From NCBI GenBank assembly GCA_049968235.1, contig JBMFRC010000015.1:1-64000 (forward strand): 64,000 nucleotides of DNA, in the 5' to 3' direction. Under the pieces are notes generated by a model that saw only the letters and a list, made by a program, of their open reading frames with translations, was not told the DNA's origin and searched no databases. This document shows positions 8,943-54,259 of this stretch, in pieces. This DNA is from Candidatus Hydrogenedens sp. (lineage in GTDB: Bacteria; Hydrogenedentota; Hydrogenedentia; Hydrogenedentales; Hydrogenedentaceae). A program made the position numbers and the translations under genes. Every line of letters starts with the position of its first letter. The stretch's first letter is position 1.

Positions 8943-9104
8943 CGGTAAAAATAAAACTCCTTTTCGCTGTTATATTTCTTACATTTTGAGTAAATATTAT
9001 AACAAAAAAAGAAAATTTATTTCAAAGAACGAAGACAATTGTAAATGTGATATTATTAGTCAAAATTAGATATTTGAACTTTTGACCAATACTAAAGAAA
9101 TTTT

Positions 9105-10022
9105 ATGAATTATATATATAAATTTTTAATATTAATCATTTGCTATTCAGGTTTTGCTCCTGTTTTAGATATTTTCCCATCCAATAGGAAGAATAATTTT
9201 CTATATTTACATATAAGACAATCCATAATACTTTGGTCATGGCTATTTCTCATCGTATTGTTTATTGGTGTTTTTGCCTTATTATTGTCCTTTCTTGTAG
9301 TTTATTTCCCAGATTTTTATCAGAATTGGGATATTGAATTATGGTTTATTAGTATTACGCGGAAAATATTATTGTGCTGGCTTATTTTTTTTATATTTGG
9401 TTTTGGAAGTGCTCTATTAAGTTCTGTTCATTTATTGCCTTTTATTGCTTCATGGATGAAAAATAAATGGCTTTTGCTATTCTCAAAATTTGTAAATACT
9501 CTATTAATAATCATTGTGTCTTTTATAGGCGTAATAAATATATATGCTTATTTTTTGTTGTATCCGCGTGAGAATGTTCCAAAGGTTTATGTTCTATATG
9601 ACAATCTTGATTACCTGCCACAGTGTATCTTTAATATAGGTTTTTTCCGAATAATTACAACAGGTTGTCATATTTATGGAAGAGGAGGTGTAGCATTGAG
9701 AGTTGTGGATAAAGAGAGTTTTGCGGAATCACTTAAAAATGCAGAAATTATCTTTGTCGCCTCGCATGGATGGGAGGAAGGAATGTTGTCACATGAAGGA
9801 ATCATTAAGCCTGAGGATATTCAAAAAATGGAAATAAATAAACATTTAAAATTTATATATCTATCTGCATGTAAAAGTGGTGCTCAACGGGAGGCATGGG
9901 AAAGAGTTTTAAGCCCTGCAAAGGTATTAACTTATAAAAGGATGACCGCAACATTTGAACATGCATGGTGGTTCTGGAAGAATGCCCCAAGGGTAATTCG
10001 GGGAGAATATAAAGAGGAGTAG
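9105..10022 (+). CDS. Membrane protein (4 predicted TM helices) with a C-terminal caspase/clan-CD-like His-Cys dyad module.
   Basis: The C-terminal ~110 aa contain IIFVASHGWEEG (His221) and KFIYLSACKSG (Cys256). Each catalytic residue follows a hydrophobic block, and the two are 35 aa apart, as in caspases (SHGEEG ... QACRG) and CHAT domains. Confidence 0.35.
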   Translation: MNYIYKFLILIICYSGFAPVLDIFPSNRKNNFLYLHIRQSIILWSWLFLIVLFIGVFALLLSFLVVYFPDFYQNWDIELWFISITRKILLCWLIFFIFGFGSALLSSVHLLPFIASWMKNKWLLLFSKFVNTLLIIIVSFIGVINIYAYFLLYPRENVPKVYVLYDNLDYLPQCIFNIGFFRIITTGCHIYGRGGVALRVVDKESFAESLKNAEIIFVASHGWEEGMLSHEGIIKPEDIQKMEINKHLKFIYLSACKSGAQREAWERVLSPAKVLTYKRMTATFEHAWWFWKNAPRVIRGEYKEE

Positions 10023-10023
10023 A

Positions 10024-10674
10024 TTATGAGTTCGGTAAGTGTAATTTAGAAATTAATTTTAAGTATTGTTCTTCTGATAACACACAGGGTTTACAAATCA
10101 AGTGAGTTAGAAATAATATTTTAGCGGAATGCTCTACTCGTTCAAGATAAGAATATGCTTGATTTAAATCTTTTCCTACCGTAATTACTCCATGTGATTT
10201 TAGAATGAGGGCGTTATGATTGCGTATCCATGGTTTTATGATTTCTGCACCTTCTTTACTTCCCGGTGTCGCATAATCTGTGGTTGGAACTTCACCTAAT
10301 GTCATTATGAGTTCTGGTAAAATGGGTGTACACATGGATATATCTACAATAGATAAGGCTATACTGTATGCAGGGTGAGCATGGACTACTGCATGAACAT
10401 CTTCCCGTTCATCATAAGCGGATAGATGTGTATAAAATTCGGAAGAAACAGACCCTTTCCCCTCTAAAATTTCACATTTATTGTTGGTAAGGATTATTTG
10501 TTTGGGATGTAAATCTCCTTTGGTTACATTACTGGGGGTGCATAGAAATAAATTCTTGGCTATTCGAATACTTATATTTCCATCGGTAGAAGAAATGTAC
10601 CCATTTTGATACATTTTTTTTCCTATTTCGCAAATGAGTTTTTTATGTTTATCGTATTTATTGAGTTTGGACAT
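10024..10674 (-). CDS. Class II aldolase/adducin family protein, of the L-fuculose-phosphate aldolase / MtnB dehydratase / ribulose-5-P 4-epimerase type.
   Basis: STDGNISIR and HAHPAY-type zinc-binding His motifs are present in a 216-aa protein. Confidence 0.7.
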   Translation of the reverse strand: MSKLNKYDKHKKLICEIGKKMYQNGYISSTDGNISIRIAKNLFLCTPSNVTKGDLHPKQIILTNNKCEILEGKGSVSSEFYTHLSAYDEREDVHAVVHAHPAYSIALSIVDISMCTPILPELIMTLGEVPTTDYATPGSKEGAEIIKPWIRNHNALILKSHGVITVGKDLNQAYSYLERVEHSAKILFLTHLICKPCVLSEEQYLKLISKLHLPNS

Positions 10675-38050: not shown

Positions 38051-38962
38051 TTAACCAATAAAATATTGAAAATTCTTATCAATAAGAGGCTCTATATCTT
38101 TCTTATAGATAATCGGTTCACTCACTTCATTTTTATGTTGTTCCCAAAAAGATTTCCACTCTTCTATATTATCAATTTTTTTATTGTTTAATTCTATTTT
38201 CCACAGGTTATTTAATGCTTCTTTACTCGAATTGGCAATTCTTGGTTCTGGATGGCTAAGGTTTTCTATAAGAACAGGTGTTACAGATTTTAATCCTACA
38301 TGGGCTATTGCATAATTTGTTATGATACATACATCGATATCCGGGTCAACTAACCCACGAATAATTAAATTATAACTTTCTGTATCTTTTGCAATGGCTA
38401 AAAGTTCAATGGCTTTTCCACGTACTGTCGGTGCGGAATCAAGAATTTTATCTCTTAAAATTTTTATCGTTTTATCTTTATTTATCTTATATAAAATTTC
38501 TAAAATATGCGGTGTGATTGTAGGGGAATAAGAGGGAAGATAGTATTCTAAATAAGGGAAGATATCCATTGTTTTTTGAAGTTCTAATAATCCATTTTTA
38601 GCAGTAACACGGTCAACTTCTTCGCCCCATTGAATTCTACTAATTAGTGCTTCAACCTGTGCTCGTTGGTCTTTATTTAATCCCGTTTTTTCGGTAAGTA
38701 ATTTGTCTTTTTCTTCCCATTCCTTTTTTGCTTCATCTAAATTTATTTCACCTGTTTTATCGTTTTTTTGGATGTTAGCAATTTCGTCTTTTGTGTATTT
38801 AAATATTTTCTTCCCTACCTGTATCGTGTAAATTCCATCGGCTGATTCATCAACGATTTGCCCATCAAAAGTAATACCACTTTTTAAGGTAAAGGTATCT
38901 GGAAAAGTGAAAATACATATAAAAGACGCGAACAAAAAAGCAAAAATGAACCTTATACCCAT
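38051..38962 (-). CDS. HEAT/PBS-lyase-repeat protein with an N-terminal signal or anchor.
   Basis: HEAT-like repeats are present (for example PTVRGKAIELLAIAKD..., DPDIDVCIITNYAIAHVG, PEPRIANSSKEAL). The gene lies 33 nt downstream of the GspK-like gene on the same strand. Confidence 0.45.
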   Translation of the reverse strand: MGIRFIFAFLFASFICIFTFPDTFTLKSGITFDGQIVDESADGIYTIQVGKKIFKYTKDEIANIQKNDKTGEINLDEAKKEWEEKDKLLTEKTGLNKDQRAQVEALISRIQWGEEVDRVTAKNGLLELQKTMDIFPYLEYYLPSYSPTITPHILEILYKINKDKTIKILRDKILDSAPTVRGKAIELLAIAKDTESYNLIIRGLVDPDIDVCIITNYAIAHVGLKSVTPVLIENLSHPEPRIANSSKEALNNLWKIELNNKKIDNIEEWKSFWEQHKNEVSEPIIYKKDIEPLIDKNFQYFIG

Positions 38963-38995
38963 TTTAATCCTCCTATAAAAGATATTTATTAAAAA

Positions 38996-41326
38996 TTATT
39001 GGAAGTAGAATGCAATTTTTCTATAACTAACGACATTAGGGTCGGTAATTTCAAGAAATCTCCGTACACGCGGGTCATAATACATTGTTAAACCAATACC
39101 AACACCATTGTTCGCAGGAACAAATACTCCTAAATCTGCTGAGACTATACCACCACGAACAATCATTTTCCCGTATGTGTTGGAATTATGTCTTGTTTTA
39201 CTTCTCACGATACACCAGATAGAGTTGTTGCTATATAGAAGACCATCGAATTGGAATGGTCGCCCCGAATCGGGACGACTTAATTCATCTTTAAACCAGA
39301 TGCGCCGTAGAGTATCTTCGCTAATCCAGTTCATATCAGGATTACAATAGTGATAAGTAGCACGAGTTAAGATATCCAGTGGCAATCCTTTTTGAATTAG
39401 GTAATCACGTAGTAGTTTTACCCCGGCTTCGTTATACTTTACCGCATGTTCATCAGTTGCATCGTAAATATAAATTTTATCCGGTTGACTTGCCCGTAAG
39501 CCATAAAAACGAGGAGTATAATTGGGGTCTGCTAATGCTTTCTGTAATTCCATACGATTAAAAAGTTTTAATTCCGAGGTAGTGAAACTAAATTGTTGTC
39601 CTTTTCTTCCAGCCACAATTTGACCTGCATCTACTGAATCAGGGTCAAAATATCCCCAACGCAAAGTTTCTGTTACATTATTAATTGTCACCTTATTTGT
39701 TCTGTTTGCATTTCTGGTATCAATGCTATATTGAGTCCATAGGGGGTATTTTTCATTATTTCTTGCACTATGGTTAACACCACGAACGGTTAGGTAATCA
39801 CCAACCATAATACTTCCCCCTGCAACGAGTGCAAAGGCATTGGTAGTTCCATCTTCTGCTTTTCCAAATTCACCCGGAGCATCCGCATAGGTTACATCTC
39901 CAACAACATAAACATTTCCCCTTACCAGTAACTGTCCTTCACCTTTAATTTTACCTGCAATAACTAAATCTCCATTTACAGCAACGGTTCTTTCTATCTG
40001 TATGGGGTCTTGTTCCGTGCCGATAAGTATGAGATTACCATCATAAGTTCCTGTCGTTGATAGACTATTGATAGCAGAATTCGACGCGGTAGGTAATGGA
40101 TTATTTATATTCGCAGGTATATATACAGAACCACGAGGAACACCGTAGGCAACACCGGAAGTTATTTGTCCTGGTGGTGGGGCTTCTCCTTCTACTATTG
40201 TATTATCAAAATGAACTCTTCCATTGGCAGTATTCAAAACCACCTGGAATTCCTCATCATCAACAATTCGATTATTATTATCATCCGGAAATGGAGCCGG
40301 AAAGTTATTAGGCACGATCCCATCTGTTTGAGCTTGCTCATCCGTAGGATAATTCATATATAGGTTTGCAAATTGAACGAGGTCCCCATTAGGAGTTCTC
40401 CCTGCATTTTGTAAGTTTGTAATTATCATGTTCCCAGAAGAGTCTTGAACAATTTTACCATTGTTATTATTAATACGATATGATTTCAGAGTTGAACTTT
40501 GGAGTTCTGAAACAGAAAATGGGGTTCCATCAGGTTTATAAACACGACCTCTTGTATATAATGTACCTGCAGCACGACTATCTGCCTCTGTTGGTCTTAC
40601 TAACATAGATTCCAGAGATGCAACCTTAATACGGTCAAAAGTATTATAATTTGCAGGGTCAGTATTTCTAAACAAGTCTAAGGACTGAAATTCAGCATGA
40701 CATAGAATACAACTTATATTATTTGCAAGAACGGCAAATTCTGTATGAGGACTCGCTCTGCCCCCAATATTAACAACCTGAACCGCTGTTTTTGCAATAC
40801 CATTCCGTCTCGCAGTGGATGTTATTGTAAGGAATGAACGAGACCATTCATCATATCTTGCAATATGAACACTTTCAATTTGTGCTACTTCTTGGTTATT
40901 GTTAGGGTCCCTTAACACAATGGGTTGATTAATCAAAGCCCAACCTCTCCGGTCATATCCAGCAGGATAGGTTTCAAAAATACCGTTCCCATTTCCCGTT
41001 TCATCAATATCTTTGGTCCCATTAAAATTCAGGTCTTCATTTATTGGGATCCCTAAATTATTATCAAGATAGTACCGATAAGAAGCCCAATTTTTTGTTG
41101 TATTTCCACTTGTTTCTATATAATCGTCCCAGAGCCTTTTTAATGCTAGGTCTATACCTGCTTGCGATGCTTCCCTGAGAATAATATCATCTGCAGAAAA
41201 ATCCGTTTCTCTCTTGTTATTTACAACTATCGCGGAAATAACTCCTATAGCACCCAAAATTACAATTATAGAAATCGTGGTAAAAATTAACGCTATACCA
41301 GATTCTTTTTTTCTTACATTACGCAT
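38996..41326 (-). CDS. Large (776 aa) GspK-like minor pseudopilin or pilus-tip protein candidate.
   Basis: The N-terminus ESG|IALIFTTISIIVILGAIG is prepilin-like and lacks Glu+5, as in GspK. The gene is the third in an operon after two bona fide prepilin-type genes. The long C-terminal region is beta-rich. Confidence 0.4.
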   Translation of the reverse strand: MRNVRKKESGIALIFTTISIIVILGAIGVISAIVVNNKRETDFSADDIILREASQAGIDLALKRLWDDYIETSGNTTKNWASYRYYLDNNLGIPINEDLNFNGTKDIDETGNGNGIFETYPAGYDRRGWALINQPIVLRDPNNNQEVAQIESVHIARYDEWSRSFLTITSTARRNGIAKTAVQVVNIGGRASPHTEFAVLANNISCILCHAEFQSLDLFRNTDPANYNTFDRIKVASLESMLVRPTEADSRAAGTLYTRGRVYKPDGTPFSVSELQSSTLKSYRINNNNGKIVQDSSGNMIITNLQNAGRTPNGDLVQFANLYMNYPTDEQAQTDGIVPNNFPAPFPDDNNNRIVDDEEFQVVLNTANGRVHFDNTIVEGEAPPPGQITSGVAYGVPRGSVYIPANINNPLPTASNSAINSLSTTGTYDGNLILIGTEQDPIQIERTVAVNGDLVIAGKIKGEGQLLVRGNVYVVGDVTYADAPGEFGKAEDGTTNAFALVAGGSIMVGDYLTVRGVNHSARNNEKYPLWTQYSIDTRNANRTNKVTINNVTETLRWGYFDPDSVDAGQIVAGRKGQQFSFTTSELKLFNRMELQKALADPNYTPRFYGLRASQPDKIYIYDATDEHAVKYNEAGVKLLRDYLIQKGLPLDILTRATYHYCNPDMNWISEDTLRRIWFKDELSRPDSGRPFQFDGLLYSNNSIWCIVRSKTRHNSNTYGKMIVRGGIVSADLGVFVPANNGVGIGLTMYYDPRVRRFLEITDPNVVSYRKIAFYFQ

Positions 41327-41336
41327 ACGCTATCTC

Positions 41337-42002
41337 CTAATTTTCTAATTTAACTATCCCGCTGAGTTCGGCGCGAATTAAGGGTCCTTCTCCCGGACCC
41401 ATTCGTTTCGTTCCTTCTAAACGAATGTATAACAAAGTAGGGGTATTTTCACTATCACTTCTATCAGGTAATAATTGAAACTCTACATTACTAATACAAT
41501 TTGCACTCCCTATTACGCGTCTATTATTCCCCTGAACCATTACTAATCTTCTTGTTAATGCCCTATCTCCATTTGTATCTTCACCTGCATCTAAAATGGC
41601 ATTCGGAGGAACTCCTTCAGAAGAACGGTCTTCATTTTCATATTGAACAAGAATCTGTTGGGATGATTGGACAAATGCAGGTGTGTTGACGGGTACGGGG
41701 ACAAAAAATCGCAAGCCCCGTCCATCATTTTGGACTTGAATTGCCTCTGCCCCTGCAGGTGCTATAGGAGGAGTAACATTCGTAGTAACTTCTGTATATG
41801 CCTGTTTTACTAATTCTGAAAGTTCATTAAATGTATTTCGCAAATCAGAATCGATTTCATTTTGAGCATAAGAAAGTGATGAGGATTTTACAGAAGATTG
41901 TAACGCCAGAAAACTCAGTAAGGAAATGATACCCATCAATGCAACGGATATAGTTACTTCTATTAAAGTAAATCCAAAAATTCTTTTTTTCATATCACAC
42001 AT
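41337..42002 (-). CDS. Type IV pilin-like / T2SS pseudopilin (GspH/I/J-like) with a class III signal peptide.
   Basis: The KKRIFG|FTLIEVTISVALMGIISLL prepilin-peptidase cleavage and methylation motif is present. The real start is probably the fourth-residue Met, at 41993. Confidence 0.7.
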   Translation of the reverse strand: MCDMKKRIFGFTLIEVTISVALMGIISLLSFLALQSSVKSSSLSYAQNEIDSDLRNTFNELSELVKQAYTEVTTNVTPPIAPAGAEAIQVQNDGRGLRFFVPVPVNTPAFVQSSQQILVQYENEDRSSEGVPPNAILDAGEDTNGDRALTRRLVMVQGNNRRVIGSANCISNVEFQLLPDRSDSENTPTLLYIRLEGTKRMGPGEGPLIRAELSGIVKLEN

Positions 42003-42011
42003 AGCCTTATT

Positions 42012-42476
42012 TTATATTGAAGTTAATATCGTAGCAACTGTATCTCTTATGGGATGCCCACTGAGGGATGTCCATGTGGCAGTTACATAAACCTGAACAG
42101 GATTATTTGTCCCACCGGCGGGTTCACCATTCATATTTCTGCAGACTACATTTATTTGTAAGTCTGGTATGGGTATAGGATGTCCTTCTACTGATACCAT
42201 TGTTAACCAATCATTGGATGTTTTCCCGTTTATCCATGCATAAAAACCTTCCCAGTTGAAATTCTCATTACTTACAGAAAAGTCCTTCCTTTTTTCGCGA
42301 ATGGCTTCAATTACAGCACGACAAGCATGTAAAGCCTGTATCCGTTCCCTCTGGATTTGTAGATTGTTGTGGGAAGAAACCAATATAACTGAAGTTACTC
42401 CTACCACAAAAGCAAATATAGCCACTGCAATCATAATTTCTATTAATGTTAAGCCCTCATTTCCTTTTTTACTCAT
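42012..42476 (-). CDS. Type IV pilin-like / T2SS major-pseudopilin-like protein (GspG-like).
   Basis: The KKGNEG|LTLIEIMIAVAIFAFVVG N-terminal prepilin motif is present in a 154-aa protein. Confidence 0.7.
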   Translation of the reverse strand: MSKKGNEGLTLIEIMIAVAIFAFVVGVTSVILVSSHNNLQIQRERIQALHACRAVIEAIREKRKDFSVSNENFNWEGFYAWINGKTSNDWLTMVSVEGHPIPIPDLQINVVCRNMNGEPAGGTNNPVQVYVTATWTSLSGHPIRDTVATILTSI

Positions 42477-42660: not shown

Positions 42661-43836
42661 TTATAGAGATTGTTTTAAAATCCTTGCTCCATCGGATGGT
42701 GGAGAAATAATATAAGAGCCATTTCTTCCAGTAAGAGAATTGTATTTTTCAATTAGTAGTTTGACAAAATTTTCAATATGTTTTGTTTCTACTAAATTTA
42801 TTGTGCAACCGCCAAAACCAGCCCCGGTCATTCTTGCCCCTTTACATCCCTCTATGTTTCTTGCTATTTCTGTCATTAATTCTAACTCCTGATTAGTAAC
42901 TTCGTAGTTTTTTTGCAGGCTTAAATCTGATTCATTTAGCAAATCCCCCACTTTAGAGATATTTCCATTTTTGAGTGCCTCAATACAGAAAAGAACTCGA
43001 TCATTTTCAGATAGAACATGGAAAGCCCGTTTATAAGATACAGGATGCATTATATTTTTTGTTTGGAGTAGTTCCTCAATAGTGAAATCTCTCAAATGTG
43101 TAGCGGATTTTTTATAGAATTTATTTAAAGTATCTAATGCATCATTACATTCCGCTACTCGTTCATTATATTTTGAACCTGTAAGCCCTCTTGGGCAGTT
43201 TGTATTTGCTATCACAAAAGTATATTCAAGTAAATCAATAGGAGTTAATTCGTATTTTAGTGTTCTGCAATCCAAGAACAAAGCATGTCCTTTTTTCCCA
43301 CATCTCGAAATAAATTGGTCCATGATACCTGATTTTAATCCAAGGAATTCATTTTCAACGCGTTGCCCTAACTTTGCAGACTCCACATCGTTTAAATTGA
43401 AGTTGCCCATTGCTTCAAATAACTTTAAGATAGCCATTTCAAGGGATGCGGAGCTACTAAGCCCACATGCCATAGGAACATCACCAAATATGACACCATC
43501 TATACCTGTAAGGGGAAGACCCAATTTTTTTAATTCATACGAAACCCCCATAACATAATCCATCCATGGGTCAATAGGATTACGAGATGGATAGTTTATA
43601 TCTGCAATACTTTGACGGTTGGTATTCAATGCATAAAAATTTAACAACGAATCATGTCTTTTTTTCCCAGCAATATAAGTCCCTTGTTCCAGTGCCATTG
43701 GAAGCACATAACCATGGTTGTAATCGGTGTGTTCCCCGATAATATTTACCCTACCCGGAGCCTTTACAATGACATCCGGAATCGTATTAAAAAAGTGCAA
43801 AAATTGTTTTTCTAAGTATTGCAGAATATCTCCCAT
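42661..43836 (-). CDS. galK: Galactokinase.
   Basis: The galactokinase signature GRVNIIGEHTDYNHGYVLPMAL and the GHMP kinase motif ARMTGAGFGGC are present. Confidence 0.9.
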   Translation of the reverse strand: MGDILQYLEKQFLHFFNTIPDVIVKAPGRVNIIGEHTDYNHGYVLPMALEQGTYIAGKKRHDSLLNFYALNTNRQSIADINYPSRNPIDPWMDYVMGVSYELKKLGLPLTGIDGVIFGDVPMACGLSSSASLEMAILKLFEAMGNFNLNDVESAKLGQRVENEFLGLKSGIMDQFISRCGKKGHALFLDCRTLKYELTPIDLLEYTFVIANTNCPRGLTGSKYNERVAECNDALDTLNKFYKKSATHLRDFTIEELLQTKNIMHPVSYKRAFHVLSENDRVLFCIEALKNGNISKVGDLLNESDLSLQKNYEVTNQELELMTEIARNIEGCKGARMTGAGFGGCTINLVETKHIENFVKLLIEKYNSLTGRNGSYIISPPSDGARILKQSL

Positions 43837-43876
43837 AGATAATGTACTCCTGATAGTAGATTGAGATTAGAAATAT

Positions 43877-44980
43877 TTATATGATGGCTTGTTCTGTTAC
43901 AGGGTCAAAAAAATGAATTTTTTCAATGTTTATATTTACAATAAAAGGTTCACCTATAGAGGGCTCTTTATCTAACTTCAGTTTTGCTGTAATCGTATTC
44001 ATTCCAGTATTTAAGTACAGATTCATTTCAGAGCCCATAGGTTCAACCACATCAACAATTGCTGATATTGAAATACCTTTTTGAGGGGTTTGACTTTGAT
44101 TAATTATAAAATCTTCTGGGCGAATACCTAAAATTGTTTTTTGATTAATAAAATTTTTTAGATGTTCTTGTAAATTCTCTGGGACAAGAATCTCGATATT
44201 TTTATTATCAGAAAAATATAACTTTTCGTCTTGAAATATAATACTGCCTTCAATCATATTCATAGGTGGACTTCCTATAAAACCTGCCACAAATTTATTT
44301 ACAGGCTTGTTATACAATTCCAGAGGAGTTCCTATTTGCTGAACCGTCCCATTATTCATAACAACAATACGGTCACCCATTGTCATGGCTTCAATTTGGT
44401 CATGGGTTACATAAATAATGGTGGCTTTTAATTGATGGTGTAATTTTGATATTTCTGCACGCATCTGGACGCGCATTTTAGCATCCAGATTGGAAAGAGG
44501 TTCATCAAAAAGGAAAACTTTCGGATTACGAACAATGGCTCTACCCACCGCAACTCTTTGTCTTTGTCCTCCAGAAAGAACTCTTGGTTTAGCATTTAAA
44601 TACTCAGTCAGACCTAATATCTCAGCTGCTTCTCGAACTCGTTTATCAATCTCTTGTCTGGAGACCCCTCTCAACATTAAACCAAATGCCATGTTTTTAT
44701 ACACTGTCATATGCGGATATAACGCATAATTTTGAAAAACCATAGCAATATCACGGTCTTTGGGGTGAACATTATTTACCAATTTACCATCAATTAAAAT
44801 ATTCCCAGAACTAATTTCTTCAAGACCCGCCACCATCCGTAATGTTGTCGTTTTCCCACACCCCGAAGGTCCTACAAGCACAACAAACTCTGTATCCTCT
44901 ATTGTTATTGTTACATCTTTCACTGCGATAAAACCATTGGGATAAATTTTCGTTAAATGTATTAATTCAACTTTTGCCAT
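43877..44980 (-). CDS. Sugar ABC transporter ATP-binding protein (MalK/UgpC/MsmK family) with a C-terminal TOBE domain.
   Basis: Walker [10 protein letters not shown], the signature LSGGQRQR and Walker [12 protein letters not shown] are present in a 367-aa protein. No cognate permease was found in the window. Confidence 0.85.
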
Positions 44981-45009
44981 CTTTACTTTTCCTGTTTCTA
45001 AATGTATAT

Positions 45010-45744
45010 TTATATTGTATTTTGTTTCATATCATTGATTAAACTTGTCCGAAAATCTTCGGGTATATCCATGTTATTAATAATAAGTGAATTGATAATA
45101 CATTCCAGGATGTATGTGTAATCTGAAGACACATTCTCAGATTGTTTGTTAAAATAAAAATGCTTCGGTGTATTTATTTTTATTTTCTGAGGTTCAAGAT
45201 TTTGAGTAATTACGATTCTAACTTTTTCTATAGAGATAGAACGAATACTTCGGGTCATTCCTACATTTGAATATAGTTCTTTTTTTAATATTTTTAATAG
45301 AGAACCTATGTTAGTTCCTTTACCCGGAATATAATATAAGTTTAGTTGCAAATTATCTATATATATGTCATAGTTTATTTTAAAATTGGAAGAGATAGAT
45401 GCCTTTGTCTGTATATGTTCCGATTGTAAAACAGGTTCGTCGGGGAAGGGGACAAGATTTTTTACATAAAAATTCTTAAAAGTAATAGAAAAATCCCAAA
45501 GATTTACATAAGCCTTGTCAAAGTAAAAAGTGATATTCGACGACCGTGTTAAATATTTTTCAGCGATTTTAGTAATAAGAAATGTCCGAGTATATGGGTA
45601 AAATACAGAAACACCACACAAAAGAAATAACAAACTACCTGTAAAAGTCATAGCATAAAAAACTTTTTGTTTGAAGGTAGTTTTTACTTTTTTCTTTTTA
45701 GTGGTTCTTTTCTTGTTAGATTTTTTATTTGAAGTTTCAGTCAA
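45010..45744 (-). CDS. Hypothetical protein with a Lys-rich cytoplasmic N-terminus and a single TM anchor.
   Basis: [21 protein letters not shown] is followed by a TM helix. The gene overlaps the upstream gene by 8 nt. No family was recognised. Confidence 0.4.
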
Positions 45745-46471
45745 AGGTATGAGTCCAGTTTAATACCTTTTTATGAAGGGATTTCTGTTTTTTCTTTAAA
45801 TTCTCTTTACTGTCTTTTAACTTCATAGTAAGAGGGACTTCTACAGGCACCTGTTTTGGACTCCAGGAAAAACAGAAAAGGGTGTCATAACCGTTTAATA
45901 TAAGATATATCTTTACATTTTGAAGTCCTTCTTTAGGTACAAGGATTTCATTTGCGTTGTAAGGGAAAATAAGGGTAACCTTTCGTTTAAATCTGCGAAG
46001 GGTTCCCGATGGTATTTCTTCCAGCGATTTGTCAACAACAATCTGTGTAGGATGTATCTCTGTATTTTCATTCAAGAGCATATAAATATTAAACCCCCTT
46101 AAACTAACACTATCATAAGCAATACTCATATCCTGAAAGGAAGAATCCAATACAATTTCAATTGTAACTCCATGAGTTGTTGAAGAATTCGGTGACATCC
46201 ATACCGCCTGACTTTCAGGGTTAAATATTTTTGGATAAGGACCCCGCATACATTGAATATTTGAAACAGGATTATCCGGGACAAAAGGTATTAGTTCCCC
46301 TGCCGATACTGTTTCCTCCCCCTTCTTTTTATCTGCACTTGTTTTACAACTTATTCCGGAAACAAGAAAATAACTACATAAAATTAATGTAAATACAATA
46401 CTCGTGATACAATTAAAACTTAAATAAAAACAAGTGTAATTTTCTGAATATTTTATATTTCTGTTTGGCAT
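45737..46471 (-). CDS. Hypothetical exported protein or lipoprotein candidate.
   Basis: A hydrophobic N-terminal segment is followed by Cys. The protein is 244 aa. No family was recognised. Confidence 0.4.
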   Translation of the reverse strand: MPNRNIKYSENYTCFYLSFNCITSIVFTLILCSYFLVSGISCKTSADKKKGEETVSAGELIPFVPDNPVSNIQCMRGPYPKIFNPESQAVWMSPNSSTTHGVTIEIVLDSSFQDMSIAYDSVSLRGFNIYMLLNENTEIHPTQIVVDKSLEEIPSGTLRRFKRKVTLIFPYNANEILVPKEGLQNVKIYLILNGYDTLFCFSWSPKQVPVEVPLTMKLKDSKENLKKKQKSLHKKVLNWTHTFD

Positions 46472-46532
46472 ATCTTTATGAAACTTTGTTTTACTTATAT
46501 TAACAGATTTAATGAAGAATAAAAAATATACA

Positions 46533-47273
46533 TTACTTATTTTTTAATGGTTCTTTAGTCGAAACATCTACATGAGGTTTCGGTAAATTGGATTGATTAT
46601 CTTTTTTTAAAGGCAAATCAATGGCACTTCTGCTCTCGTCTCCACCTTTACCATATTTCATTAAAACCATTTCACCCTCAGTAGTGGATAATTTCACAAT
46701 ACCCAGAGGTTTTACCTCATCATTAAGCCAGATTTCTTTTGTTGTATTATCTTCACTAATTCTGTAATGTTTTGCTTTTATTTTACCATTCTTAAACTCA
46801 ATATCTTCTTCACCAATAAGGTTTTTCTTTGAAGGTGTATCCGTATTTCCTGACATAGTTTCAACATCAATATTTTGGGGGGGATTGGCTCCTTCACGAA
46901 CTACTATTTTGTGAATTTTCTCTTTCCCATTGTTATCATAAGAAATCAGAAAACGATATACAGAAGGAAATCCTTCCATAGGGATAATTTCCGATTCTAA
47001 CCACAATGCAGAGGTATTTTCATCTATTTTTTCTATTCCCGTTAATGCTTGCCTTAATAAAATATGTGTTTTTGTGGATTTATCCGTTATTTCATAAATA
47101 GCCCAAACACCCGGTTCGGATGATAGTATCTTCCCTTTAAATAAATCCTCTATAAAACTCTGGGTATTTCCTATTTTAGGGGAGAGAATATAAAGAAGAA
47201 ATATCTGGATATATAAAAATTTAGTCCAGAAAAAATATTTTTTTGTTCTTATAAAAGAAAAATTACAAAGCAT
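46533..47273 (-). CDS. Hypothetical secreted protein.
   Basis: The protein has a signal-peptide-like N-terminus and is 246 aa. The gene lies 12 nt downstream of the GHKL ATPase gene. Confidence 0.4.
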   Translation of the reverse strand: MLCNFSFIRTKKYFFWTKFLYIQIFLLYILSPKIGNTQSFIEDLFKGKILSSEPGVWAIYEITDKSTKTHILLRQALTGIEKIDENTSALWLESEIIPMEGFPSVYRFLISYDNNGKEKIHKIVVREGANPPQNIDVETMSGNTDTPSKKNLIGEEDIEFKNGKIKAKHYRISEDNTTKEIWLNDEVKPLGIVKLSTTEGEMVLMKYGKGGDESRSAIDLPLKKDNQSNLPKPHVDVSTKEPLKNK

Positions 47274-47285
47274 ATTTTATATAAA

Positions 47286-48527
47286 CTAAATTAATAGTTT
47301 TTGGATTTCAGTTTCTTTGTCTTCGGGTAAAGAAATAATCTCATTTACTATATGAGTAACTTTATTTGAATCTGTTTGTATCAAGGTGTAAAGAAGTTTC
47401 AGAATTAATTGCTGGGTTAATTTTGGGGCGTCATTGAGTTCACGAACCATCTGGAAAAGATGAGTGGCGTATATGTCAAATATTTTTATAGAAATACTGT
47501 TTTCCGGATTAGAAATCTCCTCAGGAGTTATAGGATAAATCCCATCATCTTTCCACTCCTGAATCATCAATTGTGTTTTTTCTGCTTCCCGAAGAATAAA
47601 ATGTTCACGAAGTCTTTTTTTGCAAAATTGAGTGAGAAAACGGACATCTTCACATAACTCGTCTGTTTGAAGTAGCCCTTGCTGGTCTAATAATTTGATA
47701 TATTCTGACTTAAAATATGCAGTATAACTAAATCCACGAAAATGTAATCGAGGGAAAGGAATAAATCTTGCAAATCCATTTTCATCGCAGAATAAAAGTC
47801 CCCGTCTTCCCGATGTGTTCCACTCTACAATAGTTAAGTCTGCATTGATTGTTTTACCACTGGGAACAACTATATCGTGGTATTTATATTCATACTGGTT
47901 TTTCTGAACATTTTGCGGGTCAATAGATATTCCATCGTATATAATTTTTACATTTGGGTATTGCGTTAAATAGGGTGCAAAAATATCAGTAATTTCTTCC
48001 ATTGCAAGTGTCCCACGTACAAGGGAAATGTTATCATTGGGTAAAGCAATTCGGACATACATACCTGTCGCGTTTTCATACTCTGTAACAGGTTCCGGTT
48101 CAGACACCTCAAATACAGATAAATTCTCAATATTTCCCTTAATATAGAAACAATAACGATTATTTCCCTCACAATAAATACTTTTCCATGTTACTTTGTT
48201 TCCCAAAGAAAAAGCACGAAATCGTCCTTTACCATATTTCCCATGCAGGATTCTCTTCTCATTGGGGGTAACATATTCTCCCTTTTTCCATGAACCACCT
48301 AAATTGCTGAAAGAAATTAGGGCATCTTCAAATCGCAATCCATTGCCATCATCAATAATGTCAATATAGTCCAATCCACTTAATTCATTCTCAACAAAAC
48401 GAACCTGGACATGTTTTGCCTCTGCATCGAGAGCGTTCCAGATTAATTCGACTATGGCATTTAGCGGACGAGTTTTACCTATGGTTTCAAGATGGTCTTC
48501 TTTAACCTGAATGTGTATTGTTCGCAT
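47286..48527 (-). CDS. Standalone GHKL (Bergerat-fold, HATPase_c_3-like) ATPase.
   Basis: The N-box ELIWNALDAEA and the G1-box IDIIDDGNGL are present, followed by KYGKGRFRAFSLG. There is no HisKA, receiver, MutL or Hsp90 context. The protein is 413 aa. Confidence 0.55.
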   Translation of the reverse strand: MRTIHIQVKEDHLETIGKTRPLNAIVELIWNALDAEAKHVQVRFVENELSGLDYIDIIDDGNGLRFEDALISFSNLGGSWKKGEYVTPNEKRILHGKYGKGRFRAFSLGNKVTWKSIYCEGNNRYCFYIKGNIENLSVFEVSEPEPVTEYENATGMYVRIALPNDNISLVRGTLAMEEITDIFAPYLTQYPNVKIIYDGISIDPQNVQKNQYEYKYHDIVVPSGKTINADLTIVEWNTSGRRGLLFCDENGFARFIPFPRLHFRGFSYTAYFKSEYIKLLDQQGLLQTDELCEDVRFLTQFCKKRLREHFILREAEKTQLMIQEWKDDGIYPITPEEISNPENSISIKIFDIYATHLFQMVRELNDAPKLTQQLILKLLYTLIQTDSNKVTHIVNEIISLPEDKETEIQKLLI

Positions 48528-48601: not shown

Positions 48602-49924
48602 TTAAGTGATTTTTCGATGGTCTATAACCCTGCATGCTTTCCCTGTGGAACGTTCCAATGTATTTGGAGGCAATAACTCTATATTAACATGAATACCTGT
48701 AATTTCATTAATTTTACGAAGGACTCGGTCTCGTAAAGATTGCATCTCGCTCATCTTATCCGAAATATACCCTGCTTGTAATTCCACTTTTACCGATATT
48801 TCATCTAATATGCCAGGTCTTGTTACTTCAATAAGATAGTGTGGAGCAATGCCCGGAACTTGAAGAATGGCTTCTTCAATTTGAGATGGAAATACATTTA
48901 CGCCTCGAATGATAAGCATATCATCTGAGCGTCCTTTTACACGGGACATCCGTTTTGTTGTTCTTCCACAGGGACATGGACTGGTATCTAAACATGCCAG
49001 GTCCCTTGTTCTATAACGGATTATTGGGAACGCTTCCTTTGTTAAACTTGTAAATACCAGTTCACCGTATTCGCCTTCTTTTACTGGTTCAAGTGTAGAA
49101 GGATTTAAACATTCTACAATGAAATGGTCCTCCTGAATATGCATACCTTTCTGCAAATAACATTCACCACTTACTCCCGGTCCGATTACCTCGCTAAGTC
49201 CATAATTATTAAAAGCCTTAATTCCCAATTGCTCTTCTATTTCTTTTCGCATATCTTCAGTCCACATTTCACCCCCAAAATGTCCATATTTTAATGATAG
49301 ATTTTTAGGGTCTATCCCTGTTTGCTTTGCATGTTCTGCGATATTTAATGCATAACTGGGTGTACATATTAACACATCAGGTTTTAAATCTTGGATAAGC
49401 AAAATTTGTCTTGCCGTGTTACCGGACGCAGCAGGAATAATGGTAGCACCAACCTTTTCTGCTCCGTAATGTAATCCAAAACCACCTGTGAAAAGTCCAT
49501 AACCAAATGATATTTGCACAAAATGTTCTTTTCGTAACCCGCCTGCCACAAGAAACCGTGCACATAGATTTGCCCATGTCTCAATGTCTTTATGTGTATA
49601 TGCCACCAATGTGGGTTTGCCTGTTGTTCCAGAAGAACCATGGATTCGTGCCAGTTCATATTTAGGAACCGCAACCAATCCTAAAGGATAATTTTGCCTT
49701 AAATCTTCTTTTACAGTAAAAGGTAATCTTCTTAAATCATCAAGAGACTTTATATCCTCAGGTTTAACTTTGTATTTGTCGAAAGAGTTTTTATAGAAAG
49801 GAACGGTATTATAAACTCTTTCCACTACTTTTTTTAACAATTCTAATTGTAACTTGTGCCGTTCTTCCGGTTTAATTGTTTCCGCAGAGTCCCAGATAGA
49901 ATTTTCGAACGGTAACGAATTCAT
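48602..49924 (-). CDS. Phenylacetate-CoA ligase family (PaaK / coenzyme F390 synthetase-like aryl-CoA ligase).
   Basis: An AMP-binding core is present ([12 protein letters not shown]). The protein is ~440 aa with the family-typical C-terminus. Confidence 0.8.
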   Translation of the reverse strand: MNSLPFENSIWDSAETIKPEERHKLQLELLKKVVERVYNTVPFYKNSFDKYKVKPEDIKSLDDLRRLPFTVKEDLRQNYPLGLVAVPKYELARIHGSSGTTGKPTLVAYTHKDIETWANLCARFLVAGGLRKEHFVQISFGYGLFTGGFGLHYGAEKVGATIIPAASGNTARQILLIQDLKPDVLICTPSYALNIAEHAKQTGIDPKNLSLKYGHFGGEMWTEDMRKEIEEQLGIKAFNNYGLSEVIGPGVSGECYLQKGMHIQEDHFIVECLNPSTLEPVKEGEYGELVFTSLTKEAFPIIRYRTRDLACLDTSPCPCGRTTKRMSRVKGRSDDMLIIRGVNVFPSQIEEAILQVPGIAPHYLIEVTRPGILDEISVKVELQAGYISDKMSEMQSLRDRVLRKINEITGIHVNIELLPPNTLERSTGKACRVIDHRKIT

Positions 49925-49940
49925 TTGTATTTACCTTATA

Positions 49941-50381
49941 TTATTGATTGGCTTTTTCATATAATTGAACACTATCCAGAACATTAATTCCTTTCCCTTG
50001 CAATGCCTTTATAGCGATGTCAGGTTGGTCAAATCGAAAAACAATAACTGCTTTGTCCCCACTGCGGAAGGTAAATGCATACATATATTCTATATTTAAA
50101 CCTTCGTTCTCAATTACTTCCAGAATTTTGGCAAGTCCGCCGGGTTTGTCTTCAACTTCAGTAGCAACTACTTCTGTTGTATTGACAATAAACCCCTCCT
50201 GTTCAAGAACTTCTTTTGCCTTCTTCCAATCTTGAATAATAAGACGGAGAATTCCAAATTGTTGAGTATCTGCAAGTGATAAGGTAACTATGTTTATATT
50301 ATTCCGGGCTAATACCTTACATGGCTCACTAATTCTGCCGGGTTTGTTTTCTAAAAACATCGAAATCTGTTGTATTTTCAT
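49941..50381 (-). CDS. ACT-domain protein, of the PaaK-associated small regulatory type.
   Basis: The protein is 146 aa with two ACT-like beta-alpha-beta-beta-alpha-beta halves. It is flanked by two PaaK-family genes. Confidence 0.6.
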   Translation of the reverse strand: MKIQQISMFLENKPGRISEPCKVLARNNINIVTLSLADTQQFGILRLIIQDWKKAKEVLEQEGFIVNTTEVVATEVEDKPGGLAKILEVIENEGLNIEYMYAFTFRSGDKAVIVFRFDQPDIAIKALQGKGINVLDSVQLYEKANQ

Positions 50382-50396
50382 ATATTACTCCCTCAT

Positions 50397-50434
50397 AGTA
50401 AGTAAGTTTATTTATTTATTTATTTATTCATTCA
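50397..50434. repeat. Compound tetranucleotide microsatellite (AGTA)2-(TTTA)5-(TTCA)2 in the intergenic region.
   Basis: Read directly from the sequence: agtaagtaagtttatttatttatttatttattcattca. It lies between the ACT gene start and the stop of the paaK-2 gene. Confidence 0.8.
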
Positions 50435-50443
50435 TTATAAAAA

Positions 50444-51775
50444 TCATATTTTTCTTAAATCCACTACGCGTTTGGCTTTACCTTCGCTTCTGGGTATTGA
50501 ATGAGGTTCAACAAGTTTCACATTTGCTCTAATATTAATTATTCTCTCAATGGATTGCATAAACTTATTCTGAAGTTTTTCCATCTCACTAATACGGTCA
50601 CTAAACATTTCTTTGGTTACTTCAATTAAAATTTCCATCTGGTCTAACCCATGTTCACGGGTTAATTTTATTTGGTAGTGAGGTGTAGACCCTTCCACGG
50701 CGAGTAATGCAGTTTCTATCTGGCTTGGGAATACATTAACACCTCGAATGATAAACATATCATCACTTCTACGCGATATTTTCTTCATTTTTCGTATCGT
50801 TCTACCACAGGGACAGGGCTTGTCATAAAAAGCTGTTATGTCACGAGTTCTATAACGAATCATAGGCATGGCTTTTTTGCTAAGGGTTGTGAACACCAAT
50901 TCTCCCTCTTCACCATCAGGGAGAGGTTCTAATGTTTCAGGGTCTATAATTTCAGGGTAGAAATGGTCTTCAAAAATATGCAATCCATTCTGGCAAATAC
51001 ACTCATTTCCAACACCCGGTCCAATAATTTCCGAAAGTCCATATATGTCGTATGCCTTTATGTTCGCTTCCCTTTCTATGTATTCCCTCATGGCTTCGCT
51101 CCAGGGTTCTGCACCAAATATCCCAATTCGTAGAGGTAATGATTTCAGGTCAATACCTAATTCCCCAGCCCTTTCGATAATGTGAACAAAATAACTCGGG
51201 GTACAACAAATGACAGTTACTTTGAAATCTTTCATAATCATGATTTGACGGTCAGTATTTCCACCTGAAATAGGGATAACGGTTGCCCCCAGAGATTCTG
51301 CACCATAATGGAAACCTAATCCACCTGTGAATAATCCATACCCATAAGCATTCTGAACAATATCACCACGGTCTACCCCGCATGCGGATAGACTACGAAC
51401 CATAACATTACACCATACCTCAATATCTTCTTTTGTGTAAGCAACAACAATTGGCTTTCCAGTGGTCCCACTGGATGCATGAAGTCGTACAATTTCATGC
51501 ATAGGACTCGCAAATAGACCAAAGGGATAGGTATCTCTTAAATCTGTTTTGACCGTGAAAGGTAAATGCTTTATATCCTTAATAGAAAGAATATGTTCCG
51601 GTTTTACTTTGTGTTCATCCATTCGTTGTCGATAAAACGGAACATTCTCGTAAACCCGTTGAACTATCTTTTGCAAACGGTGTGATTGGATTTCTTCGAG
51701 AAAATTTTGTGGTAAATAGTCCACAGAACTAATCGGATTAAATTTGCTCCCTGCATCATGCCAAAAACAACTCAT
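50444..51775 (-). CDS. Phenylacetate-CoA ligase family paralog.
   Basis: [13 protein letters not shown] and the same architecture as 48602..49924 are present. The protein is 443 aa. Confidence 0.8.
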
Positions 51776-51856: not shown

Positions 51857-54259
51857 TTGTTAGTCAAAAACATAAAAAAAGGAAGAAAAATGAAAGTGAA
51901 GATATATCAATTATATCTACTATCTTTTTGCTTATTATTTGCATTAATGTTTTTATCAATAAGTATACACGCAGAAACAAGTCGTCGTTCTATTGCTTCT
52001 CTTTCCACTGACTTATACGAAGTTCATCTTTTCAAGAATGGAACAATTAAGGTTTTTTTTGCAAATGGGTTGGAAGTTCTATCATTAGAAAGCCCTTCTG
52101 TTGTATATGCAGATTCGGATGAAATCGTTCCATTAAAACTTTCAGGATTAAATTGGTATAAAGAACCTGTTTCTAACCCATTGGGAGATGGAATAGGTCT
52201 ATACATTCAAGGGAAAAATCTGACATGGGTAGTAGAAATATATCCGGGAAAACCTTTTTTTACAGTTAGGTATCAGTATTTAAATAATTCAAAAAAAGAA
52301 CAGAAAATAAGGTCGTTAATATCCGTCCATGGAACATTAAATCAATATAGAAATGAAGAGATAAATGAAAATTCTATAGTTTGTCTTGGAAATGGAAATA
52401 TATTTGAATCTATGATGGATTTTCCCCAATGGGTAAATGGTTTTGACTTGAAATCCCAATGGAATCTGGCTATATATGACCGTAAAAGAGAGCAATCACT
52501 ACTGGCAGGATTTTTAACCTGTGATAAAGCCTATGGACAAATTACTCTTGCCAGAAATGAGAAAAAAAAGACAGTCCAGATAAAGTCCGAAAGTGTTTTT
52601 GATGCTCCAATTCAATTATTACCAGGAAAAACAATAAATGCAGAAGTTCTCTATTTTTCCTTAGGGGAGCAAAGTCCGCATAATTGTTTAGAGCGCTATG
52701 GTCGGGCTATTGCAGTTATGAATAAATTGAGTAAAAATAATGCTTTTCTGCCTCATGGCTGGGATAGTTGGAGTACTGCCCTTCATAAAGATGTTAACGA
52801 AAATGTAATCATGGAAAATATTCAGTTTGTGGATACTTATCTTAAAAAGTATGGCTGGAATCAGATTGCTATTGACGCAGGATGGGAACGAGGTCCAGCA
52901 GATTGGGAACCACATCCTGAAAAATTTCCTCATGGTCTTAAACCTATTGTAGAAGAATTGCATAATCGGGGTATGAAAGCAGGATTGTGGATTGACCTAT
53001 TTACAATACCTGTAGATTCAAAACTGGCGAAAGAATATTCTGAATGGTTGGTTTCCCCAGATGCACGAGGTAAGTTATTGTTAGGAAAAGATAAAAAGGT
53101 TTTGGATGTTACTATCCCTGAAGCGTATAATTATGTTCGAGATACATGTAAAAAAATATCCCATGAATGGGGTTTTGATGGTATAGTAGAAGCAGATTTC
53201 GTTTATCATTTATTATTAGGGGAAAAATATAAAGATGAAAGTTTAACTAAATTACAGGTATTAAGAAAAGGGTTGGAAGCCATTCGTGAAGGGTTGGGAA
53301 ATGATAAATTTCTAATGACAATGCTTCCGATTAATGTTTCCGGCATGTATGCAGATGGGATACGGATTGGTTTTGACAATAAACCTTTATGGTCATCGCC
53401 AACTCTCTCGGGAAATTGGGGTTGTGTAGAGTCTCTAAATAATTTCGCTCGCCGATATTATTTATTCCCTCATTTGGGAGTTCCAGACCAGGGCTGCATT
53501 TTTTTAGGGCATCCAGAAACGAATAAGAGATGGAATGTCCCAGAAGATAAAAAACTAACACAATCACAAATAGTAGCGTGGATTACTGGTACTGCCTTGA
53601 CAGGTGGAGTCTTTAAAATAGGGGAGGAGTTTACAAATCTATCTCCTTATGAACTCAATGTATTGAAAAAAATAATCCCAAAATCATCGCAATCAGCCCG
53701 TCCTGTGGATTTATTTGATAATCCATACCCCCAAATATGGTCTTTACCCCTTTCTGGACCTATGTTAGATATAAACATTGTGGCAGTTTTTAATTGGGAT
53801 ACAGAGAAAAACACAAAAGTATCCGTCTTTTTGGAAAAGTTAGGATTGGATGGAAATCAACTTTATACATTATATGATTTTTGGAATGAAAATTTTGTTG
53901 GTATTATTCAAAATGCCTTTATTATAGATTTGCCTCCTACTTCTGTTTCTTTATATGGTATTCGTCCTGTAGAAAAGAATCCCATATTTGTTGCATCAAA
54001 TCACCATATTACACAGGGTGTTTTCGATATTAAAGATTTGAAATATTCTCCAATAAATAAGGAAATGACAGGAGTAATGAAAGTAATTGAGGATACAGAG
54101 TATAAATTAACATTTTTTGACCCTGAAAAGAGAAAAGTTCAAATAAATGGAATCAATTTCACCAATGTTTCCTTACAACAAAAAGAAGGTATTATTACCC
54201 TTCAGTTTATTACTCCAAAGGATGTAAATGAGTTAAAATGGAGTATGATGTTTGATTAA
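51857..54259 (+). CDS. Secreted clan GH-D (GH27/GH36-like) alpha-galactosidase-family glycoside hydrolase.
   Basis: The protein has a signal peptide. The melibiase-type block LPHGWDSWSTALHKDVNENVIMENIQFVDTYLKKYGWNQIAIDAGWE corresponds to GWNSWN...IDDGW. Confidence 0.55.
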   Translation: MLVKNIKKGRKMKVKIYQLYLLSFCLLFALMFLSISIHAETSRRSIASLSTDLYEVHLFKNGTIKVFFANGLEVLSLESPSVVYADSDEIVPLKLSGLNWYKEPVSNPLGDGIGLYIQGKNLTWVVEIYPGKPFFTVRYQYLNNSKKEQKIRSLISVHGTLNQYRNEEINENSIVCLGNGNIFESMMDFPQWVNGFDLKSQWNLAIYDRKREQSLLAGFLTCDKAYGQITLARNEKKKTVQIKSESVFDAPIQLLPGKTINAEVLYFSLGEQSPHNCLERYGRAIAVMNKLSKNNAFLPHGWDSWSTALHKDVNENVIMENIQFVDTYLKKYGWNQIAIDAGWERGPADWEPHPEKFPHGLKPIVEELHNRGMKAGLWIDLFTIPVDSKLAKEYSEWLVSPDARGKLLLGKDKKVLDVTIPEAYNYVRDTCKKISHEWGFDGIVEADFVYHLLLGEKYKDESLTKLQVLRKGLEAIREGLGNDKFLMTMLPINVSGMYADGIRIGFDNKPLWSSPTLSGNWGCVESLNNFARRYYLFPHLGVPDQGCIFLGHPETNKRWNVPEDKKLTQSQIVAWITGTALTGGVFKIGEEFTNLSPYELNVLKKIIPKSSQSARPVDLFDNPYPQIWSLPLSGPMLDINIVAVFNWDTEKNTKVSVFLEKLGLDGNQLYTLYDFWNENFVGIIQNAFIIDLPPTSVSLYGIRPVEKNPIFVASNHHITQGVFDIKDLKYSPINKEMTGVMKVIEDTEYKLTFFDPEKRKVQINGINFTNVSLQQKEGIITLQFITPKDVNELKWSMMFD

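Follow-up and report, generated by a model that had tools for sequence, protein, structure and literature searches.

A nuclease-less GHKL ATPase of a probable paraMORC3-like family and a separate envelope gene set, side by side in Candidatus Hydrogenedens

Among the described GHKL (Bergerat-fold) proteins, paraMORC3 (Iyer, Abhiman & Aravind 2008) combines the ATPase domain with an S5 domain and a C-terminal RecB-like nuclease of the restriction endonuclease (RE) fold (E-D-ExK); its distribution is wide but sporadic, and it is often encoded alone, without conserved neighbors (PMC2292703). Here we analyze a locus that encodes a likely relative of this family in Candidatus Hydrogenedens sp. (Hydrogenedentota; GenBank assembly GCA_049968235.1, contig JBMFRC010000015.1, positions 1 to 64,000; 'the window' is this whole stretch of 64,000 nucleotides). 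The gene for a soluble GHKL ATPase is followed on the same strand by genes for three small envelope proteins, p246, p244a, and p244b; an earlier interpretation made from the DNA letters alone (the sequence-only reading) had proposed that the four genes encode an ATP-driven envelope or defense module.

Several other described systems bear on this locus. E. coli MutL has no nuclease activity of its own and works with a separate nuclease, MutH; eukaryotic MORCs, thought to be derived from prokaryotic restriction-associated GHKL proteins, probably act as ATP-dependent DNA clamps or compactors. A survey of Shedu lists a class (type 1D) with HATPase_c_3 and an Hsp90/MORC-like middle domain (bioRxiv 10.1101/2023.08.10.552793), and the E. 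coli proteins YdbH-YnbE-YdbL form an AsmA-like intermembrane lipid bridge (PMC11126948, PMC13464000).

The proposed module is not a conserved unit. In our reading, to which we assign a probability of roughly 0.6, the locus consists of two independent units placed side by side by lineage-specific synteny: unit A, a nuclease-less paraMORC3-like ATPase, and unit B, the envelope gene set. We recovered the four minus-strand open reading frames (ORFs) that had been reported, with gaps of 12 nt (ATPase-p246) and 61 nt (p246-p244a) and an overlap of 8 nt (p244a/p244b). We scanned one genome for each GTDB species and obtained 80 loci, 50 from Hydrogenedentota and 30 from other lineages. The trio is next to the ATPase only in a Hydrogenedens-level clade, in which the ATPase shares at least 60% identity with the window protein, and in this clade the whole ~15-kb block from the alpha-galactosidase and PaaK-ACT-PaaK genes to the MalK-GalK-pilin genes is syntenic. 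Hidden Markov models (HMMs) of p246, p244a, and p244b gave no match in the ~45 remaining loci of Hydrogenedentota; the ATPase occurs without the trio and with other neighbors in more than 40 loci of the phylum. The adjacency does not reach beyond the closest relatives. Unit B also occurs without unit A: the order p246-like, p244a-like, DUF748 is kept in locus L089 with no ATPase (nearby are a divergent gene of 1150 aa and genes of sugar-nucleotide and glycosyltransferase type), L090 has p244a-like and DUF748 genes without the ATPase, and L087 has a p246 fragment and a p244a-like gene on contig 1 of a metagenome-assembled genome (MAG), the ATPase of which lies on a different contig, 14 (L050). 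Unit A is thus found without unit B and unit B without unit A, and the two are best read as independent; the coupling of the ATPase with three envelope proteins into one module does not hold, the adjacency being restricted to a single clade.

Two observations on the syntenic loci are recorded here. In L097 and L098 (4743-8712), where the ATPase is 77% identical to that of the window and the synteny is the same, only p246 and p244b lie between the ATPase and MalK; p244a is absent from this close relative, and the make-up of the envelope cassette thus differs within the genus. In L002 (GCA_017880035.1, 4838-7847), the PaaK/ACT/PaaK genes are called as fragments (206+139, 51+47, and 312+130 aa), which is better explained by frameshifts or assembly errors in that MAG than by genuine gene decay.

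The relatives of the ATPase separate into short forms and nuclease-bearing long forms. More than 1000 relatives are present in the protein database; the best 120 are all ~410-440 aa in length, are at least 45% identical, and are labeled Hydrogenedentes where named. The proteins from the 30 loci outside Hydrogenedentota are 33-39% identical to the window ATPase over residues 1-412 and come from Pseudomonas, Rubrivivax, Piscinibacter, Novispirillum, Acidobacteriota, Armatimonadota, Planctomycetota, Verrucomicrobiota, Myxococcota, and one MAG contig labeled Nitrososphaerales; by ORF calling these homologs are 650-730 aa in length. In a joint alignment, all 52 of 52 short forms, every one from Hydrogenedentota, stop 0-19 residues from the end of the window protein, and 29 forms from other phyla run on for ~240-270 residues (two of the 29 are broken); a single split in a midpoint-rooted neighbor-joining (NJ) tree parts the short from the long forms. 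The C-terminal domain is found in 29 of 29 homologs from outside Hydrogenedentota; it has conserved D..., ...ELK..., and Q...Y (QxxxY) motifs and matches Pfam HSDR_N_2 (E 1.9e-5) and, weakly, Cas4 models, and these motifs and matches identify it as a RecB/Cas4-type PD-(D/E)xK nuclease. The same division is seen at a larger scale: an exhaustive HMMER search over 1.84 billion cluster representatives gave 693 clusters (50% identity) at E <= 1e-30, mostly of 650-700 aa, and the short forms of Hydrogenedentota account for essentially a single such cluster and one fragment.

No match to the nuclease is found in the neighborhood of the Hydrogenedentota short forms or in the proteins themselves. An HMM of the long-form nuclease domain, run against six-frame translations, found nothing in the window or in the 50 Hydrogenedentota loci (8 kb on each side); a split-off nuclease, for example p246 as the detached domain, was rejected on this result. 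Some short forms do occur outside Hydrogenedentota. P0270 (409 aa, 33% identical), in L095 (GCA_015232855.1, 5001-6230), is an independent nuclease-less short form. After it lies a convergent gene for an amino-acid permease, and several other representatives of ~410-430 aa share its end boundary.

A labeling problem was noticed in the same scan. L008, L010, and further loci are titled 'uncultured Nitrospirales/Nitrospiraceae bacterium' and show gene-for-gene synteny with the Hydrogenedens window; the labels on these MAG records are probably wrong. A contig identical to that of the window lies in the Candidatus Hydrogenedens MAG GCA_049971155.1.

The window ATPase appears to be the nuclease-less form of a paraMORC3-like family, the long forms being assigned to that family by architecture, motifs, and distribution as given in the text of the original paper. 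Like paraMORC3, the window protein has a GHKL domain with intact ATP motifs and an S5 domain, its long-form homologs carry the RecB-like nuclease with D/ExK motifs, and these long forms are sporadic across phyla and usually stand alone. Unlike paraMORC3, the window protein and the 52 Hydrogenedentota short forms stop just before the nuclease and are inherited together with core genes. Both the GHKL family and its fusion to the nuclease were already described in 2008 (Iyer et al.); the new elements are the nuclease's consistent loss or absence, fixed across a candidate phylum, and the small envelope cassette. The long forms also share the layout of Shedu type 1D, that is, HATPase_c_3, an Hsp90/MORC-like middle domain, and a C-terminal PD-(D/E)xK nuclease; however, five long forms gave no Shedu/DUF4263 match at E <= 0.1 (Pfam, PADLOC), and the window protein has no nuclease.

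The ATPase itself is a member of the GHKL superfamily, with the N, G1, and G2 motifs intact and the fold recovered with AlphaFold2 (AF2) and Foldseek. It matches Pfam HATPase_c_3 (E 2.4e-13, residues 23-125), and the N-box and G1 box that the sequence-only reading had placed at 48338-48452 are present at 48336-48449, that is, within 3 nt. Residues E27, N31, and D34 (N-box), D59, G61, and G63 (G1 box), and H95, G96, G99, G101, R102, and F103 (G2 region) are invariant across 38 homologs. The AF2 model, built from 38 homologs (predicted local distance difference test [pLDDT] 83.8; predicted template modeling score [pTM] 0.74), has three parts: the Bergerat domain, a second alpha/beta domain (~195-290), and a C-terminal helical bundle (~293-400). 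Searched against the PDB with Foldseek, it matches TRAP1/Hsp90 N-M fragments, MORC2/3/4, MutL LN40, and MLH1 (E 2.5e-13 to 1e-10 over 320-420 columns). The model thereby places the protein in the GHL subgroup, in which an S5-type transducer domain lies directly C-terminal to the GHKL domain.

The described GHL proteins resemble the ATPase in part only. It shares with MutL LN40, MLH1, and PMS2 the GHKL and transducer fold (Foldseek E ~5e-11) and the best sequence-profile matches, at the N-box and G1 box (E 3e-6), but it lacks the MutL C-terminal dimerization or endonuclease domain, and the sequence similarity covers only ~55 residues. With MORC2/3/4 it shares the arrangement of a nuclease-less GHKL+S5 ATPase and the best TM-scores (0.50-0.52); it differs in lacking a coiled-coil, CW, or other chromatin-reader domain, and the identity is 12-16%. 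In a sequence-profile search against PDB chains, only MutL, MLH1, PMS2, and MORC were found at E < 0.05, and these in the N-box and G1 region only.

Several specific identities were tried and set aside. No HisKA, MutL_C, HSP90, or gyrase domain was found in the ATPase (Pfam, NCBIfam), in agreement with its description as freestanding, free of any kinase, MutL, Hsp90, or gyrase context. It is not a diverged sensor histidine kinase: HisKA is absent, HATPase_c matches at E 0.18 only, and the fold neighbors are GHL proteins. It is not MutL proper, for which NCBIfam TIGR00585 gives 36.7 bits (cut-off 180) with only residues 20-74 aligned and Pfam gives no MutL_C. Membership of the Hsp90/HtpG family was rejected because PF00183 is unmatched and the structural similarity is generic for GHL proteins. 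As for known defense systems, PADLOC-DB v2 gives the ATPase only REase_II (E 7.8e-4, over the GHKL region); in PADLOC and NCBIfam the similarity to type II restriction endonucleases (BbrUII/HgiDII) and to MzaB is confined to the GHKL region and lies far under the cut-offs.

The genomic settings of the short and long forms differ. Orthologs of the short ATPase (~411 aa) are present in at least 50 Hydrogenedentota species, with pairwise identities of 41-99% that track relatedness. Outside the Hydrogenedens clade the neighbors are LeuRS (14 loci), HisRS (four loci), and C39-peptidase-like, GNAT-like, and FG-GAP proteins. Between the window and L002, the identity of the GHKL protein (61%) is similar to those of MalK (71%) and GalK (66%). 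These comparisons suggest that the short ATPase is vertically fixed in Hydrogenedentota, where it behaves like a core gene. In a distant member of the phylum (L005, 8001-11143), the short ATPase gene overlaps by 4 nt a downstream gene for a 634-aa FG-GAP-repeat protein; this neighbor is probably exported, and the pair is another lineage-specific tight adjacency.

The long forms are found on 49 plasmids by tblastn. The neighbors of the genomic long forms show no recurrent partner, no family occurring in more than two loci (Pfam and PADLOC, 84 neighbors); scattered among ordinary genes are XhoI/methyltransferase, a type I S subunit, DarT/DarG, ShosA, and a resolvase. Two plasmids provide individual examples. 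On pGal_E78 of Phaeobacter gallaeciensis (L092, NC_023141.1; 3112-10025), there is a 4-nt overlap between the long-form gene (8037-10025) and the end of a gene for a type ISP restriction-modification (R-M) protein of 1642 aa, with RelE/ParE and VapBC toxin-antitoxin pairs nearby; this arrangement suggests a two-gene restriction unit. On Psychrobacter pP62BP1 (L094, NC_019274.1; 3768-9953), the long form lies in a compact defense island with Drt2, Dcm, and an LlaMI-family restriction endonuclease. The statement that freestanding GHKL ATPases recur in defense settings is therefore reasonable for the long-form relatives (plasmids, R-M, Drt2, DarTG); for the window ATPase, a role as a defense gene is unproven.

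These settings bear on an alternative in which the short ATPase is still part of a defense system and has an unlinked nuclease or R-M system as its partner in trans, in the manner of E. coli MutL with MutH. The restriction-like nature and defense neighborhoods of the long-form relatives and the nuclease-less short forms outside the phylum, such as P0270, speak for it. Unlinked partners are also allowed for by Iyer et al. (PMC2292703). However, the short ATPase is present across the sampled phylum with sequence divergence that follows relatedness, it has housekeeping neighbors (LeuRS, HisRS), it is conserved like the flanking metabolic genes, which is atypical of defense genes, and no match to the nuclease domain lies within 8 kb on either side in the 50 loci; we consider this alternative unlikely.

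A second alternative, that the ATPase is an Hsp90-like chaperone or protein-remodeling factor that does not act on DNA, draws on the Foldseek ranking, in which TRAP1/Hsp90 N-M fragments are the top matches (E 2.5e-13), and on the speculation in the Shedu survey that GHKL N-terminal domains may sense misfolded proteins (bioRxiv 10.1101/2023.08.10.552793). It is quite unlikely, because sequence profiles rank MutL, MLH1, PMS2, and MORC above HtpG (E 3e-6 for MutL vs 0.15), the TM-scores with Hsp90 (0.38-0.48) are no better than those with MORC3/4 (0.50-0.52, the best obtained), no HSP90 Pfam match is found, and the sister forms carry a DNA nuclease.

The three proteins of unit B are real genes, conserved in five to seven orthologous loci (L002, L007-L011), and their description as mutually unrelated envelope proteins is borne out. 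Paralogy, suggested by their nearly equal lengths, was rejected in profile-profile comparison (hhalign probability <1%). All three are envelope-targeted, p246 by a Sec-type signal, p244a by a hydrophobic segment followed by Cys42, and p244b by a transmembrane segment, and none matches a well-known family: the Pfam matches are faint or sub-threshold, PADLOC-DB v2 gives no match for any of the three, and searches of PDB sequence profiles with p246 and p244b gave nothing under E 0.49. The N-terminus of p246 is basic and then hydrophobic and ends in AQS/TQS, a pattern that is conserved in the orthologs, as is the mature domain; its family comprises 22 clusters among 5.8 billion proteins, and its Pfam hints are faint (DUF6134/DUF3108, E 0.03-0.09).

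The evidence from sequence makes p244a a probable lipoprotein. A hydrophobic stretch (KD19 2.13) precedes Cys42, which is invariant in 27 sequences, with G/A/S at -1 and a residue other than Leu at -3; a Lys-rich linker follows, and the C-terminus ends in an invariant WTHTFD. The model (pLDDT 81.9) is an Ig-like beta-sandwich with a long C-terminal helix and found no specific structural neighbor; the family comprises 28 clusters among the same 5.8 billion proteins. The poly-Lys cytoplasmic tail that had been noticed belongs to p244b, which has 12 K/R within its first 30 residues and then a single transmembrane segment. Its homologs match PF05359 (DUF748) over positions ~10-190 (L090, 5.7e-11; L089, 3.5e-7; L008, 1.3e-4; L002, 6.9e-4) and AsmA (E 0.0025), all of these under the gathering score (50-bit cut-off); the window copy matches only MDM31_MDM32 (E 0.0024), and the p244b family is linked to the L089 homolog at E 4e-6. 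The periplasmic domain of p244b thus seems to resemble the N-terminus of DUF748/AsmA-like proteins.

The 8-nt overlap of p244a and p244b is kept in five orthologous loci, which suggests translational coupling. Identities between the window and L002 are 42% for p246, 54% for p244a, and 24-27% for p244b; unit B is a fast-evolving envelope gene set, confined to Hydrogenedens and a few relatives. In composition it recalls YdbH-YnbE-YdbL in that a candidate AsmA-clan protein of the inner membrane, a probable lipoprotein, and a periplasmic protein are encoded together, an analogy of composition only. The AsmA-like member has 244 aa in unit B and 879 aa in E. coli, the partners have 244/246 and 61/108 aa, respectively, the gene set of unit B is variable in composition, and p244a and p246 are likened to YnbE and YdbL by their role in the gene set alone.

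The remaining alternative is the single operon-encoded machine of the sequence-only reading, in which cytoplasmic ATP hydrolysis would drive an envelope or defense function, for example via the poly-Lys tail of p244b; although the genes are tightly spaced on one strand with no convincing promoter or terminator between them, and their order is kept in L002, L007-L011, and partly L097/L098 while the GHKL identity falls from 88% to 60%, this is very unlikely, because the unrelated genes of the 15-kb block (PaaK, ACT, MalK, GalK, pilins) are just as syntenic and the adjacency therefore unspecific, ATPase and trio are found apart in the loci given above, the ATPase has no hydrophobic segment (maximum KD19 0.76) and hence no membrane segment, and its homologs are fused to nucleases, not to envelope domains.

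The reading of two independent units is preferred, and several points weigh against it. Short ATPase-p246 gaps (~0-26 nt by ORF calls) recur in all syntenic loci, and because the 12-nt gap of the window is too small for a terminator, co-transcription is plausible; there may be a lineage-specific functional link of the ATPase and the trio. The composition of unit B varies, since L097/L098 have no p244a and L087 has no DUF748 partner; an obligate three-part machine is less likely for this reason. The link of p244b to DUF748 consists of sub-threshold matches in homologs, not in the window copy. With no outgroup root, the tree fits loss of the nuclease on the short branch and its gain on the other branch alike. 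Finally, no DNA-binding feature links the short ATPase to DNA, and its top Foldseek matches are chaperones (TRAP1).

In the reading of two independent units, we infer the mode of action of each by analogy with the described systems. The ATPase would bind ATP via the intact N, G1, and G2 boxes, as do MutL, MORC, and Hsp90, would dimerize through its N-terminal domains, and would hydrolyze ATP with the participation of the transducer domain; as an ATP-gated clamp it would most likely have DNA or a partner bound to DNA as its target, and it would not itself cut DNA. DNA is proposed as the substrate of the clamp because of the ancestry of the ATPase. Unit B may be a small envelope or outer-membrane assembly for lipid handling or tethering, made up of the periplasmic p246, the probable lipoprotein p244a, and p244b as a mini AsmA/DUF748-like protein anchored in the inner membrane.

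Table 1. Features of the locus and of the adjoining genes, with positions in the window.
Feature	Coordinates	Strand	Basis
Unit A, 413-aa soluble GHKL ATPase, putative nuclease-less short form of paraMORC3-like family	47286-48527	minus	ORF, Pfam, AF2, Foldseek
Unit B1, p246, 246-aa Sec-exported periplasmic protein, tiny lineage-specific family	46533-47273	minus	alignment, cluster count
Unit B2, p244a, 244-aa probable lipoprotein	45737-46471	minus	invariant Cys42, model
Unit B3, p244b, 244-aa N-in membrane-anchored protein, TTG start	45010-45744	minus	transmembrane segment, homolog Pfam matches
N-box ELIWNALDAEA, residues 27-37, catalytic Glu27 and Mg-binding Asn31	48417-48449	minus	motif
G1 box DIIDDGNGL, residues 56-64	48336-48362	minus	motif
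G2 / ATP-lid motif LHGKYGKGRF, residues 94-103	48219-48248	minus	motif
Orphan MalK-type ABC ATPase (ABC_tran + OB_MalK + TOBE_2), context only	43877-44980	minus	Pfam, conserved synteny
galK, context only	42661-43836	minus	Pfam, conserved synteny
PaaK-like ligase, ACT-pair protein, PaaK-like ligase, upstream, context only	48602-51775	minus	Pfam, conserved synteny

The genes that adjoin the two units are listed in Table 1 for context. The MalK-type ATPase without a permease and galK, on the same strand, were confirmed with Pfam; pseudopilin-like genes lie downstream of galK, and a divergent alpha-galactosidase gene lies beyond the upstream ligases. The alpha-galactosidase gene (51857-54259) is ~7 kb from MalK/galK (42661-44980), and MalK has neither an adjacent permease nor an adjacent binding protein; MalK, galK, and the divergent alpha-galactosidase gene look like a cluster for galactoside use that is interrupted by unrelated genes. 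The pseudopilin-like genes (42012-42476 and 41337-42002) carry N-terminal methylation motifs and are followed by genes for a 776-aa protein with no Pfam match and then a HEAT-repeat protein (38051-42476 for the set), an arrangement that is kept downstream of galK across the syntenic loci. The G+C minimum of the region (0.27, vs 0.35-0.38 in the flanks) is at 45000-45500, where the GC skew is positive; this stretch coincides with p244b, the Lys-rich and fastest-diverging gene. A mobile-element reading was dropped, since the window contains no tRNA genes and the flanks are metabolic genes. Scans for promoters and terminators found fewer promoter-like sites than in shuffled sequences and no intergenic terminator, and are for these reasons uninformative on operon boundaries.

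A further step beyond the reading of two independent units is doubtful but can be stated: an ancestor of Hydrogenedentota would have captured a paraMORC3-type ATPase engine, dropped its nuclease, and fixed the remainder as a housekeeping ATP-gated DNA clamp, in a bacterial parallel to the origin of the eukaryotic MORCs. Such a captured clamp might serve DNA repair, compaction, or silencing, conceivably replacing or aiding MutL. If this were true, a bacterial defense enzyme would have been recruited to a core function of the cell in an entire candidate phylum, by the route from defense to core function that has been proposed for eukaryotic MORCs, and the short ATPase, if domesticated, would be a tractable protein for learning what the GHKL+S5 module does without a nuclease. 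Unit B adds a small putative AsmA-clan protein that has its own set of partners, and may help to show how an intermembrane lipid-handling assembly of minimal size is put together.

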